Virus record (IMG/VR): IMGVR_UViG_2671180778_000001
DNA: 7,668 bases
Reading direction: 5' to 3' (one strand)
Source of the DNA: a virus
Taxonomy: Duplodnaviria > Heunggongvirae > Uroviricota > Caudoviricetes
The position numbers and the translations under genes are program-made. Positions 1-7,668 of this stretch are shown in pieces. Below the pieces are notes generated by a model. That model was not told the origin of the DNA. It did not search any database and saw nothing but the letters and a program-made list of their open reading frames with translations. Position 1 is the stretch's first letter. Every line of letters starts with the position of its first letter.

Positions 1-1
1 C

Positions 2-82
2 GTCATTGAACATATCCAGGACTGGCCGGCAAACCGGGTACGCGATCTGTTGCCCTGGAAAGTTGATCTGAGCTCTCAGTAA
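2..82 (+). CDS. 3' end of an unidentified plus-strand ORF (26 codons visible, ...VIEHIQDWPANRVRDLLPWKVDLSSQ, stop TAA 80-82); 5' end lies outside the window
   Basis: Open frame from window edge to TAA at 80-82, convergent with the integrase gene 41 bp away. Too short to identify; not in ORF track because below its length cutoff. Could also be non-coding. Confidence 0.2.
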   Translation, partial: VIEHIQDWPANRVRDLLPWKVDLSSQ

Positions 83-123
83 ATATCAATACGGTTCTGA
101 CGAGTCGCTTACTTTTTTTCATG

Positions 124-1359
124 TTAACCAGCCTTTTGTTTGAGGATTGTCACTTTTGAATCAGCACCTGCGATGCTATTGAGATATGTAGTCCAGAGTT
201 CCAGAGCATCCAGTTTTTTAGCCATAAACTTACTCCGGTTGTAAACACCTGCCACGCCAGGTAGCGCATGGCCTAACAGTTGTTCTACTACATAAAATTC
301 AACACCGAGATCACTTAGATGAGTAGATAGCGTTCTTCTAAGGTCGTGTAGTGACCATTGTTTTTCATGGCCCAAACGTTTACCGATTTTCCCCCCAATC
401 TTGCTTACGCTTTCTCTAATTCGCAGACTTCCCAGCACATAACCAGTATGTTTTGTCTCTTCGTGAACATCCGTTACCCACTGTCGTAGAATTTCAGGTA
501 CTGGTCTGACGATTTCAACACCAGTTTTTGAGTGATCTTTTGGTACAGTCCAAACCCAACTTTCGAGATCCCATTCGCTCCATTCTGATAATCGGGCTTC
601 ACTCATTCGACATCCAAATACTGTACAAAGCACAAACATTTTTCGCGTGTATTCAGACATTAGTTTTAAATCAGGCTCGACAAAAATTGCCTTCCAGAGC
701 TGGCCGAGTTCGGCTTCATCCAGAACCCGATCCCGCTTACCTGCAATCTGCCCCACATCACTCATGCGCAAATCCTTTAAAGCATCACACGTCGCGTACT
801 GGCGTACCCGACAAAAACGAAGAGCTAATTTAGTGTCAGAAAAAACATACGCCGCCATAACTGGTGCATTACGTTTAATTCGGTCAAAACAGTCCAGCCA
901 TTCATATAGGTGAGTGTCATTTACGGGCAAATGACCGATATAGGGAAAGATATGCTTTCGAAATCTGCCAAGCGTTACAGCATGAGTTTTACGACGCACC
1001 TTACAGTAATTTTCATACCAGTAATTTAGTGCATCCTCCACTGTGACCGGCTTTAAGCGTTCTTCAGCCTGAATCTTAATCTGGATACGCGGATCACGTT
1101 TGTCAGCCAACCAACCACGGCACTCGTCGCGCTTTTCCCTTGCCTGTTTGAGTGACATATCAGGATATTTACCCAACGTTAGCCAGACCGGAGCAGCCCG
1201 GCCACCTGCTAACCTGTAGAAGAAAACAAAGCTCACAGCCCCTTTAGTACTCACACGAATAGAAAGCCCCTTTCCATCAGCAATGGTGATCTGCTTTTCT
1301 CTGGGTTTCCCCAGATATCCTTTAAGCGCTTTGTCGCTCAGTTTGTTCTCGCCAGCCAT
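124..1359 (-). CDS. int: Tyrosine recombinase / phage integrase, P4-type (N-terminal DUF4102-like arm-binding domain plus C-terminal catalytic domain)
   Basis: Track ORF 124-1410. N-terminal pattern LSDKALKGYLGKP...DGKGLSIRVSTKGAVSFVFFYRLAGG typical of P4/CP4-57-type integrases; C-terminal HDLRRT and GVYNRSKF motifs consistent with tyrosine recombinase HxxR/Y catalytic residues. I place the start at ATG 1359-1357 (MAGENKL...) because the track start at 1410 is a GTG and the extra 17 codons (LQSSLYCSLYCFLGLK) translate a DNA direct repeat. Stop TAA at 126-124. Confidence 0.85.
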   Translation of the reverse strand: MAGENKLSDKALKGYLGKPREKQITIADGKGLSIRVSTKGAVSFVFFYRLAGGRAAPVWLTLGKYPDMSLKQAREKRDECRGWLADKRDPRIQIKIQAEERLKPVTVEDALNYWYENYCKVRRKTHAVTLGRFRKHIFPYIGHLPVNDTHLYEWLDCFDRIKRNAPVMAAYVFSDTKLALRFCRVRQYATCDALKDLRMSDVGQIAGKRDRVLDEAELGQLWKAIFVEPDLKLMSEYTRKMFVLCTVFGCRMSEARLSEWSEWDLESWVWTVPKDHSKTGVEIVRPVPEILRQWVTDVHEETKHTGYVLGSLRIRESVSKIGGKIGKRLGHEKQWSLHDLRRTLSTHLSDLGVEFYVVEQLLGHALPGVAGVYNRSKFMAKKLDALELWTTYLNSIAGADSKVTILKQKAG

Positions 1360-1521
1360 TTTTAGCCCCAAAAAGCAATACAAGCTGCAATACAGAGATG
1401 ATTGCAACACACAGATAACGAGGAAAATTCAGTGAAAGCACCAGATAAACTTATTCTTTATTATCAAAAGATTAAGTGTAAAAACCAGCAACTACACGAA
1501 AGCCTCAGAAAGCCATGCTAA
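1360..1521 (-). promoter_or_regulatory. AT-rich integrase upstream region; probable int promoter/operator and possible att-proximal recombinase or IHF binding sites
   Basis: Non-coding gap between the E truncation point and the int start. Contains direct repeat GCAATACA x2, inverted repeat GATAA(N12)TTATC at 1444-1465, and an IHF-consensus-like TATCAAaagaTTA at 1462-1474. No clean sigma70 -35/-10 pair could be fitted by eye. Confidence 0.3.
1375..1394. repeat. Short direct repeat GCAATACA (1375-1382 and 1387-1394) separated by 4 bp
   Basis: Read directly from sequence; lies just upstream of the proposed int ATG. Function unknown (operator or arm-type site candidate). Confidence 0.5.
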
Positions 1522-1767
1522 GTGCTTCGGCTTGACATATCCCGGTGTAAATTCAGAGGTGGAGCCGCCACGGGAGCGGATAACCTCACCGGAAACAATC
1601 GGCGAAACGTACAGCGCCATGTTTACCAGTCCCGGAATTTGTGAGAGATAGACTTTCTCCGTGGTGAAGGGATAGCTCTCACGGAAAAAGAGACGCAGAA
1701 ACAGCGGATCAAACTTAAATTTCTTCTCATTTGCCGCCAGCAGCTGGGCGGTTGTGTACATCGACAT
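1492..1767 (-). pseudogene. E: Truncated major capsid protein gene (lambda E-like): codons 1-82 intact (1767-1522), then 9 unrelated codons (LAWLSEAFV) and stop TAG at 1494-1492
   Basis: Translation MSMYTTAQLLAANEKKFKFDPLFLRLFFRESYPFTTEKVYLSQIPGLVNMALYVSPIVSGEVIRSRGGSTSEFTPGYVKPKH matches the N-terminus of lambda gpE as I recall it (full length ~341 aa). D-E gap is 55 bp as in lambda. Track ORF start at 1794 is an upstream GTG artifact. Confidence 0.85.
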
Positions 1768-1780
1768 AAAAAAATCCCGT

Positions 1781-1802
1781 AAAAAAAGCCGCACAGGCGG
1801 CC
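1781..1802 (-). terminator. Short GC hairpin (GCCGC-ACAG-GCGGC on plus strand, 1788-1801) followed on the minus strand by a 7-nt U tract (1787-1781), in the D-E intergenic region; weak intrinsic terminator-like or mRNA-stabilising structure
   Basis: Seen in sequence: 5-bp perfect stem, 4-nt loop, then T7 on the transcribed strand, 21 nt downstream of the D stop. Stem is short, so termination efficiency is probably low. Confidence 0.35.
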
Positions 1803-1822
1803 TTTAGTGATGAAGGGTAAGG

Positions 1823-2155
1823 TTAAACGATGCTGATTGCCGTTCCGGCAAACGCGGTCCGTTTTTTCGTCTCGTCGCTGGCAGCCTCCGGCCAGAGCAC
1901 ATCCTCATAACGGAACGTGCCGGACTTGTAGAACGTCAGCGTGGTGCTGGTCTGGTCAGCATCAACCGCCAGAATGCCAACGGCAGTACCGTCGGTGGTG
2001 CCATCCCACGCAACCAGCTTACGGGTGGAGGTGTCCAGCATCAGCGGGGTCATTGCAGGCGCTTTCGCACTCAATCCGCCGGGCGCGGTTGCCGTATGTG
2101 CCGGGTCACTGTTGCCCAGCGGCTGGTAATGGGTAAAGGTTTCTTTGCTCGTCAT
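1823..2155 (-). CDS. D: Head decoration protein (lambda gpD-like), 110 aa
   Basis: Translation [40 protein letters not shown]...[10 protein letters not shown] closely resembles lambda gpD. Start taken at ATG 2155-2153 (GGGA 5 nt upstream); track ORF starts two codons earlier at 2161. Stop TAA 1825-1823. Confidence 0.9.
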
Positions 2156-2164
2156 AAACATCCC

Positions 2165-2770
2165 TTACACTGGTGTGTTCAGCAAATCGTTAACGGCATC
2201 AGATGCCGGGTTACCTGCAGCCAGCGGTGCCGGTGCCCCCTGCATCAGACGATCCAGCGCAGTGTCACTGCGCGCCTGTGCACTCTGTGGTGCAGCTGCC
2301 AGAATGCGGCGGGCCGTTTCCACGGTCATACCGGGGGTTTCTGCCAGCACGCGGGCCTGTTCTTCGCGTCCGTGAGCCTCCTCACAGTTGAGGATCCCCA
2401 TAATGCGGCTATTTTCTGCCGCAACCGCAGCGGTGATCTGCGCGTTCACGTCCGGCTGCGCCGCGCTGGCGTTTTCGCCCTCCGTCGCTGGCACCACGTC
2501 AGTAACGTCAGTCTGCGAAGCAGTGGCTGAAACAGTTGTTGATTGAGTCTCTTTGGTCATTCGTCCTCCTGAGAGACGGGATTTACGCGCATCCAGTGCA
2601 TCACGCATGACGGTGATCGCATCGGTGCTGTTAACAAGTTCATCAGCCAGTCCGGCATCAATGGCCTCCTGACCGCTGTACACTGCAGCCTCGGTATCCA
2701 GCACAGCCTGCACAGACAGGCCGGTATATGCCGACACCTTCTGCGCAAACATCTGGCGGGTTGCGTCCAT
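2165..2770 (-). CDS. nu3: Scaffolding protein Nu3, in-frame internal start within C (nested gene), ~201 aa
   Basis: Established lambda biology: Nu3 is translated from an internal in-frame start inside C. An in-frame ATG is present at 2770-2768 (MDATRQMFAQKV...). Exact internal start recalled from the lambda annotation, not verified here. Confidence 0.5.
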   Translation of the reverse strand: MDATRQMFAQKVSAYTGLSVQAVLDTEAAVYSGQEAIDAGLADELVNSTDAITVMRDALDARKSRLSGGRMTKETQSTTVSATASQTDVTDVVPATEGENASAAQPDVNAQITAAVAAENSRIMGILNCEEAHGREEQARVLAETPGMTVETARRILAAAPQSAQARSDTALDRLMQGAPAPLAAGNPASDAVNDLLNTPV

Positions 2771-3464
2771 CCGGGACTGCAGTGTCTCCCGGACGTCATC
2801 CGGAAGATGGCTGTAGGGATTGCCATCCACCTTATGGCTGCCGCTGTAAATCAGCGTGATTTCCACACCCTGTTTCTCCAGGGCAGCACCGTAATTACTG
2901 TGAGCCATCATGACGCCGATGGAGCCTGTCCGGGCGGTCTGCGTGACCAGACGCCGGGAGGCGGCACTGGCAAGCAGCTGACCTGCACTGCAGTTCATGT
3001 CGTTGGCCAGCGCCCATACCGGTTTTATGTCTCGCACACGGGCGATGATGTCAGCGCAGTCAAATGCCCCCGCCACCATTCCGCCTGGCGTGTCCATATC
3101 GAGCAGAATGCCGTCCACCATCGGGTCGCTGGCAGCCTGTTGCAGACGGGCGATAATGCCGTTGTAACCGGTCATCCCCGAGTACGGCTGCAGCGCCCGC
3201 GTCCGGCTGACCAGCGTGCCGGACACCGGCAGCACGGCGATGCCGTTCATGACCTGATAACTGCGGGCCTGTCGTGGTCCGTCATCATCACCGGATAATG
3301 CCAGCGTCGCGAGTGCCTCCTGGGCAGTCAGGCTGTCGCCGGACACCGCATCCGTCAGGCGGCTGATCCCAAGCTGGCCTGCAAGCGCACAAAAGAAAAC
3401 CCGCGCATAGGCGGGTTCAAGCATCAGCGGCTCATTAAAGGCCATGCTGGCAATATGCGGGAGA

Positions 3465-3484
<20 letters not shown>
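2165..3484 (-). CDS. C: Capsid assembly protease C (lambda gpC-like, S49/SppA-type peptidase), 439 aa
   Basis: Translation from MTAELRNLPHIASMAFNEPLMLEPAYARVFF... matches lambda gpC. Start assigned to GTG 3484-3482 preceded by strong Shine-Dalgarno GAGGAGGAG (minus strand); the track ORF extends to 3631 but that extension overlaps the portal gene 3' end. Stop TAA 2167-2165. Confidence 0.85.
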
Positions 3485-7165
<3,681 letters not shown>

Positions 7166-7191
<26 letters not shown>

Positions 7192-7668
7192 TCAGCAACC
7201 CCGGTATCAGTTCATCCAGCGCGGCTGCTTTGTTCATGGCTTTGATGATATCCCGTTTCAGGAAATCAACATGTCGGTTTTCCAGTTCCGGAAAACGCCG
7301 CTGCACCGACAGGGGGATCCCGTCGAGAATACTGGCAATTTCACCTGCGATCCGCGACAACACGAAAGTACAGAATGCGGTTTCCACCACTTCAGCGGAG
7401 TCTCTGGCATTCTTCAGTTCCTGTGCGTCGGCCTGCGCACGCGTAAGTCGATGGCGTTCGTACTCAATAGTCCCTGGCTGGAGATCTGCCTCGCTGGCCT
7501 GCCGCAGTTCTTCAACCTCCCGGCGCAGCTTTTCGTTCTCAATTTCAGCATCCCTTTCGGCATACCATTTTATGACGGCGGCAGAGTCATAAAGCACCTC
7601 ATTACCCTTGCCACCGCCTCGCAGAACGGGCATTCCCTGTTCCTGCCAGTTCTGAATGGTACGGATAC
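7166..7668 (-). CDS. nu1: Terminase small subunit (lambda Nu1-like), 5'-partial: N-terminal ~14 codons lie beyond the window end
   Basis: Track ORF 7166-7633 (MPVLRGGGKGNEVLYDSAAVIKWYAERDAEIENEKLRREVEEL...EYIEQSG) matches lambda Nu1; the frame stays open upstream to the window edge (…IRTIQNWQEQG-MPVL), consistent with the Nu1 HTH region. Stop TAA 7168-7166. Confidence 0.9.

Follow-up and report, generated by a model that had tools for sequence, protein, structure and literature searches.

The window analysed here, meaning the whole stretch of 7,668 nucleotides from IMG/VR virus record IMGVR_UViG_2671180778_000001 (Caudoviricetes), carried on its minus strand the left-arm genes of phage lambda in lambda order, Nu1-A-W-B-C-D and the start of E. 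Megablast aligned positions 1523–7668 in a single ungapped piece to the reverse strand of lambda J02459 (6379–234) with 98.3% identity, which is the collinearity that an earlier reading of the letters alone (the sequence-only reading) had expected. The window coordinate equals 7902 minus the lambda coordinate. The same 80% of the window was covered by 79 phage records.

These genes are referred to below as helper genes. The small terminase gene Nu1 (7166–7668) had lost its first 14 codons to the window end, without rearrangement (Nu1 starts at lambda 191; window 7668 is lambda 234). The large terminase gene A (5266–7191, 641 aa) encoded a product with 639 of 641 residues of lambda A (640/642 including the stop), and the 68-aa product of W (5063–5269) was identical to its lambda counterpart. 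The portal gene B (3465–5066, 533 aa) matched in 525 of 533 residues (526/534 including the stop), the protease/scaffold gene C (2165–3484, 439 aa), with Nu3 nested in it at 2165–2770, in 435 of 439 (436/440), and the head decoration gene D (1823–2155, 110 aa) in 106 of 110 (107/111). A, W, B, C and D were thus intact, with lambda lengths and no internal stops, and the exact B allele of the window was also present in prophages with an intact E. In the D–E spacer (1783–1806, minus strand), a G+C-rich hairpin, GCCGC-CTGT-GCGGC, was followed by seven T, as in an intrinsic terminator. It lies within the late operon and was missing from the list of the automatic terminator scan; because it lies inside the gap-free lambda alignment, it is probably a lambda feature unlinked to the insertion described below.

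Capsid gene E and the attL junction

E started at window 1767 (lambda 6135) and ran on the minus strand into a chimeric ORF, E' (1492–1767), which consisted of 82 E codons, nine satellite-encoded codons (LAWLSEAFV) and a TAG at 1494–1492. The first 82 residues matched lambda E with Q15K as the sole substitution, so the alignment bore out the claim that E was cut after codon 82 and continued into nine unrelated codons and a stop. Nucleotide identity with lambda ended at 1523, the last common base. The abrupt junction that the sequence-only reading had placed at about 1521/1522 was therefore real, although its position was one base off. Codon 82 (1522–1524) is CAC in the window and CAT in lambda, so that His82 was kept merely as a synonymous coincidence. 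Pfam Phage_cap_E aligned residues 5–82 of E' with profile positions 1–78 of 329, indicating that about three-quarters of the capsid protein is absent from this ORF. G+C content was 52–65% in the lambda-like genes and fell to 39–50% left of the junction.

The crossover lay somewhere within a 10-bp identity block, AGCCGAAGCA on the E strand (1523–1532, minus strand), which corresponds to lambda 6370–6379 and to E codons 79–82. This core block was common to attL (the window, and 21411–21420 in the related locus L001), to attR (10095–10104 in L001) and to attB (lambda and loci with an intact E). Identity with lambda extended up to and through AGCCGAAGCA in attL and from AGCCGAAGCA onward in attR; strand exchange took place within this block. 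The site is known from the helper-embedded phage-inducible chromosomal islands (HE-PICI), satellites described in 2023 by Tommasini, Mageeney and Williams (NAR Genom Bioinform 5:lqad036, PMC10111431), whose Supplementary File 1 lists identity blocks for site E:Phage_cap_E:80 that include 'agccgaagca', 'aacccaagca' and 'aagca'. The smallest of them, AAGCA (window 1523–1527), is listed for one element (PMC10111431 supplement).

Across loci L001–L012 and L014–L023 we observed two synonymous core variants, AGCCGAAGCA and AACCCAAGCA, both encoding K-P-K and each present in interrupted as well as intact E. The attL and attR variants were the same in most elements. L007 (9828 and 20783) and L008 (9828 and 20869) were mixed, with AACCC in attL and AGCCG in attR, and a strict rule of attL/attR core co-variation was dropped. 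From these mixed elements, strand exchange can be placed within the invariant AAGCA (1523–1527) or close to it, which agrees with the 'aagca' block of the supplement.

Between the core block and the start of the satellite integrase gene int lay the satellite arm of attL (P' arm; 1360–1522, minus strand), which supplied the nine foreign codons and the stop of E'. It was without similarity to lambda and was identical in L001 and other HE-PICI loci. Between E' and int, a crude scan of the minus strand gave no candidate terminator. The arm contained a doubled motif, TGTATTGC-n-TGTATTGC (1375–1396, minus strand; GCAATACAAGCTGCAATACA on the plus strand), and the two occurrences of GCAATAC in the whole window both fell within it. 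The doubled motif stood 131.5 bp from the core centre, and its partner copy on the attR side of L001 (10180–10202) stood 80.5 bp from the core. HE-PICI attP sites are reported to have a specific doubled motif, tgTGTATTGCantgTGTATTGCa, whose copies flank the attP centre at 81 ± 2 bp on the upstream side and 132 ± 2 bp on the downstream (int) side (PMC10111431). The TGTATTGC pair is a possible binding site for the arm domain of the integrase or for AlpA.

A promoter scan upstream of int gave a single weak minus-strand candidate (1482–1453, 9/12 matches). Since the total number of matches was not above the shuffled expectation, we claim no promoter there. An Rfam scan gave no RNA family anywhere in the window; P4-like C4/isrK immunity RNAs have been reported for some PICIs, and their place would be beyond the insertion sequence (IS) at the left end of the window.

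Integrase, alpA and the IS66-family insertion

The integrase gene (124–1359, minus strand) encoded a 411-aa tyrosine integrase (Pfam Arm-DNA-bind_3, E = 3.7e-19; Phage_integrase, E = 1e-16) and was co-oriented with E. The protein was identical to the 11capE integrase of strain NRG857c in 410 of 411 residues, the single change being A55D, and its placement in the 11capE subclade is unambiguous on this near-identity rather than on a tree. The exact integrase protein was indexed in 6,195 blocks of the collection, and among the 10 occurrences listed, all were between lambda-type D/E' and alpA. The int stop (126–124) was one base from the alpA ATG (122–120), and this single-base gap suggests that int and alpA form one operon. 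Of alpA itself, the presumed excisionase/activator gene, only 10 nt remained in the window (ATGAAAAAAA; 113–122, minus strand), and at the boundary they were followed directly by the IS sequence GTAAGCGACTCG. In relatives the intact gene begins ATGAAAAAAATGGCAATTGT... and encodes MKKMAIVDKK..., and Pfam Phage_AlpA was recorded for intact alpA in 10 related loci. Both int and the alpA remnant lay on the minus strand, like Nu1-A-W-B-C-D-E'.

Positions 1–112 (plus strand) formed the right end of an IS66-family (ISCro1-like) element, with the last 26 transposase codons at 2–79 and the stop at 80–82. Its terminal inverted repeat ended at 112 (GTAAGCG on the minus strand, 112 to 106). Bases 1–125 matched features annotated as 'IS66-like element ISCro1 family transposase' at 97–99%, with as many as 26 copies in a genome and others on plasmids. 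The Pfam DDE_Tnp_IS66_C match to the transposase end within 1–112 was weak (21.8 bits against a curated cut-off of 30). The GTAAGCG repeat, the transposase C-terminus and, in the L015 copy described next, a length of about 2.7 kb with three ORFs are those of the IS66 family, whose ISCro1-like members carry tnpA-tnpB-tnpC. IS-free relatives matched the window from 113 onward only.

The closest relative found, L015 (CP010238.1), was 100% identical to window 132–7668 (7,537 bp) and carried a full IS copy at 14935–17633 (2,698–2,699 bp, with one ambiguous boundary base) containing three ORFs. This copy had the opposite orientation and interrupted the final codons of int, 19 bp from the site of the window's IS, indicating that the two are separate insertion events; in L015, alpA and the satellite resumed immediately after it. 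At the satellite int/alpA boundary, the same IS66-family element has been inserted twice independently, the two backgrounds being 100% identical over 7,537 bp. Neither the IS junction of the window nor that of L015 was found in 5,426 complete E. coli genomes, and window 1–420 was contiguous in none of them. The exact IS/alpA junction pattern was also absent from GTDB representative genomes and from the metagenome contigs searched, and the 39-aa chimeric alpA'-IS ORF was not on record. A simple IS insertion would give an 8-bp target duplication, GAAAAAAA on the alpA strand, followed by TGGCAATTGT... from alpA codon 4 onward.

Complete elements and empty sites in relatives

Within the window the satellite is seen as attL, int and 10 nt of alpA; its body, attR and the 3' part of E are known from relatives. 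In L001 (E. coli fS58a) and L002 (NRG857c), int was the first gene of an 11.1–11.3 kb element. It was followed by alpA, small genes including Icd-like and YlcI/YnfO genes, DUF4222, a primase, SSB, an E-family capsid gene, a D-family decoration gene, an AlpA-like HTH gene and DUF262+HEPN. E was divided by these elements into a 5' piece of 246 bp on one side and a 3' piece of 789 bp on the other, the latter followed by FI and the tail genes of a complete lambda-like prophage. The distance from attL to attR was 10.7–11.3 kb in related complete lambda-like prophages, and a layout of four zones (int-alpA, Bro, primase/replication and late) was found in 12 related loci.

The attR site was found in L001, L002, L003, L005–L010 and L012. 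For the window's own element, attR is expected to read TGACTCATGT-AGCCGAAGCA-TGAGGTGAAT, the satellite attP TGACTCATGT-AGCCGAAGCA-CTTAGCATGG and the restored attB in E GGATATGTCA-AGCCGAAGCA-TGAGGTGAAT. Fusing E' of the window, via the core, with what lies beyond attR in L001 or in L002 gave an E ORF of 341 codons. In relatives with a visible far end, the rest of E (260 codons) and the tail genes lay about 11 kb from attL.

Empty sites were also present. L019 differed from window 1523–7668 at 3 of 6,146 nt and had an intact E, and E was uninterrupted in seven further prophages carrying the window's exact portal allele. An attL probe (window 1410–1640) was covered over at least 80% in 173 of 5,426 complete E. 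coli genomes (3.2%); in thousands of other genomes the match to this probe began no earlier than query position 114 (window 1523). L015 corresponds to the catalogued HE-PICI Eco4425.14.E_Phage_cap_E_80 (CP010238.1:3534073-3547969; identity block 'agccgaagca'; helper Eco4425.63; PMC10111431 Supplementary File 1).

The satellite capsid protein was about 43% identical to lambda E and the satellite decoration protein about 38% identical to D; these proteins may serve to form capsids of satellite size or act as a reserve for the split E. In the satellite capsid gene of L001 (13225–14265), codons 80–90 contained AAGCCGAAAAGCAGC at the position equivalent to the core, where the helper gene has AAGCCGAAGCATGA. 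As AAGCCGAAAAGCAGC is the core plus two extra A's, self-integration would be prevented.

Two slots of the satellite, one just after alpA and one beside attR, held variable cargo (10259–11975 in L001; roughly 11450–12400 and 19000–20900 in L003–L012). The cargo differed by copy and was defence-like, comprising DUF262/GmrSD_N with HEPN RiboL-PSP, Abi_C, TIR_2, CAP12-PCTIR TIR, DUF2971 and AF_1680. Some satellites also had a Nu1-like gene, of which a 265-bp stretch (19127–19391 in L003, 19128–19392 in L007 and 19297–19561 in L012) was 98% identical to the 5' region of helper Nu1 (window 7404–7668). This similarity fits a captured cos/terminase-recognition sequence, and a shared 258-bp cos-region segment has been reported for HE-PICI (PMC10111431). 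In L010 (8073–9537) and L011 (2088–6294), the helper head genes upstream of the satellite were broken by other ISs, of the IS3 family in D and IS1 before B. These two loci look like stranded satellites in decayed helpers.

Origin of the split gene and its place among known systems

We read 1523–1532 as the attL junction of an 11capE-type HE-PICI, with capsid gene E split by site-specific integration of the satellite, and put the probability of this reading at about 0.92. The 11capE integrase, the target site at E codon ~80 with its core block, the common orientation with the late genes and the doubled motif on the int side were all found. Embedding in the helper is seen upstream in the window itself, from Nu1 to E', and downstream in L001, L002 and other relatives, where the late genes continue past the satellite with the rest of E and the tail genes. 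Of the two alternatives offered by the sequence-only reading, the disruption of E by insertion of an integrase-bearing element is upheld by the site-specific attL, by attR and the other 260 E codons about 11 kb away in relatives, and by the existence of uninterrupted copies. The other alternative, a defective remnant unable to build a capsid, was left unproven. Its statement that the element cannot build its own capsid is not established, given that the insertion is reversible in the founder element (PMC10111431), that satellites carry E- and D-family genes of their own, and that A, W, B, C and D are intact.

On the remnant reading, which we consider unlikely, the junction began as a satellite attL, and the IS66-family element then deleted the DNA next to it, including the remaining satellite genes, the 3' end of E and the tail genes, to leave an immobile int and a fragment of the head genes. 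The idea keeps some weight from the IS66-family hit in alpA and from the end of the window at position 1, inside the IS. Many HE-PICI helpers look truncated (PMC10111431), and the head genes of the L010 and L011 helpers are indeed IS-broken. However, the nearby IS66 copy in L015 is a simple insertion with alpA and the satellite directly beyond it, in an element mapped in full from attL to attR (PMC10111431), and none of the window's five complete helper head genes is damaged, which speaks against prolonged decay.

Two further explanations each have a very small probability. Homologous or illegitimate recombination between E and the E-like capsid gene of a satellite, without the integrase, could draw on the core-like AAGCCGAAAAGCAGC at the equivalent site of that gene. 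The junction, however, adjoins int, whereas the satellite capsid gene lies about 7 kb away in relatives, and the two capsid proteins are merely ~43% identical; moreover, an attL and attR sharing a short common core with flanking arm motifs are the product of a tyrosine recombinase. A chimeric join of a lambda-like prophage to an unrelated integrase locus during sequencing or assembly, an artefact of the kind that the sequence-only reading had itself named, would account for the abruptness of the junction and for nothing else. It is ruled out by recurrence, as a junction identical to the base occurs in 173 complete genomes of unrelated host and country, and the attB/attP sequencing in NRG857c confirms the junction experimentally (PMC10111431).

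Site-specific integration of a satellite into E is a known arrangement. The founder, Eco567.11capE of NRG857c, is an 11-kb PICI-like island in a lambda-type capsid gene, with its own capsid gene and a 10-bp identity block; 201 instances are on record at E:Phage_cap_E:80 and 290 more elements in 13 other late-gene sites (PMC10111431). It shares with the window the integrase (410/411 aa), the target at E codons 79–82, the type of 10-bp block, the doubled TGTATTGC motif in the int arm, the orientation to the late operon and the order of int directly followed by alpA. Its core is AACCCAAGCA, whereas that of the window is AGCCGAAGCA, both being listed in the PMC10111431 supplement, and the window copy differs in having an IS66-family element in alpA after 10 nt. 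Eco4425.14.E_Phage_cap_E_80 resembles the window still more closely, with 100% nucleotide identity over 132–7668, the same core variant and an IS66-family copy near int/alpA; the latter is 19 bp off, in the last int codons, and in the opposite orientation.

Gram-negative PICIs of the EcCICFT073 type (Fillol-Salom et al. 2018, ISME J, PMC6092414) have the ~11 kb size and the int-alpA-primase backbone found in the window's relatives. Classical PICIs and 11capE-type satellites have lambdoid helpers in common and, as predicted for the 11capE type, cos-type packaging borrowed from the helper. Classical PICIs, however, reside in chromosomal genes and contact the helper in trans only, whereas the 11capE type sits inside a late gene of the helper itself. 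Assignment to the cfPICI was rejected: the relatives have capsid and decoration genes, and sometimes a Nu1-like gene, without a full head module. Phage P4 has an integrase of the same P4-type clade, with an Arm-DNA-bind_3 N-terminus, and, as in the window's relatives, an alpA-like gene and a primase; unlike the 11capE satellite, it has its integration site in a tRNA-Leu gene and uses Sid to reshape the P2 capsid. The gene lists of the relatives included no sid, psu or delta, the hallmarks of P4, and membership in the P4-like satellites was rejected, the integrase clade alone being held in common.

Genes whose integrity is regulated by an inserted element, a state also called active lysogeny, include B. 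subtilis sigK (skin), B. subtilis spsM (SPbeta) and Listeria comK (phi10403S). As with those elements, precise and timed excision of the 11capE satellite restores the split gene. The 11capE satellite differs from them in splitting a gene of another mobile element, the helper phage, and its attP carries no replacement sequence. The gene switch at E presumably serves the satellite.

In the founder, mitomycin C caused the prophage-satellite composite to excise and replicate first; the satellite then excised precisely, one to two hours later, restoring E, and attB and attP of the NRG857c element were checked by sequencing (PMC10111431). No particles were recovered from it (PMC10111431). While embedded, the satellite would keep the helper capsid gene off, as its describers proposed (PMC10111431), and would be replicated passively with the helper. 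Q-antiterminated late transcription of Nu1-A-W-B-C-D-E' would continue into int-alpA, a read-through with which the lack of a detected terminator and the one-base int/alpA gap are consistent. Such read-through would time the excision and expression of the satellite to the late phase of the helper. Once excised, the satellite would be packaged through the cos and terminase machinery of the helper.

The IS, inserted 10 nt into alpA, separates alpA and all downstream satellite genes from int and from helper read-through. Excision is predicted to be impaired, since AlpA, the presumed excisionase/activator of 11capE-type HE-PICI, is cut off from int by the IS; the insertion thus probably impairs satellite excision and may lock E in the split state. 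The block is a prediction because a shortened AlpA, lacking three N-terminal residues, could still start at Met4 should the IS drive transcription outward. It is also conceivable, if rather improbable, that selection favours IS hits at int/alpA, or that the A-rich sequence there is a genuine hotspot, through uncoupling of int-alpA from late transcription of the helper. If the hits were selected, the satellite would be frozen in E, turning a reversible capsid-gene switch into a permanent disarming of the helper prophage, and the E- and D-type genes and defence cargo of the satellite would be left as fixed assets of the host.

The split-E arrangement has been described before, and a near-identical copy stands in the published catalogue (PMC10111431); the IS-disrupted state is a small new detail and could represent a natural alpA-uncoupling mutant. 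What appeared to be a dead prophage with half a capsid gene becomes a parasite on two levels, a satellite nested in the capsid gene of its helper, which probably times its own excision by the late transcription of that helper. For annotation, a split lambda-type late gene beside a P4/PICI-type integrase is to be taken as an HE-PICI junction and not as decay, and about 3% of complete E. coli genomes have the exact E junction. HE-PICI biology is still thinly studied, with one primary paper in the library searched, and the IS-disrupted copies would serve as natural mutants for the role of AlpA and helper read-through in satellite excision and the restoration of E.
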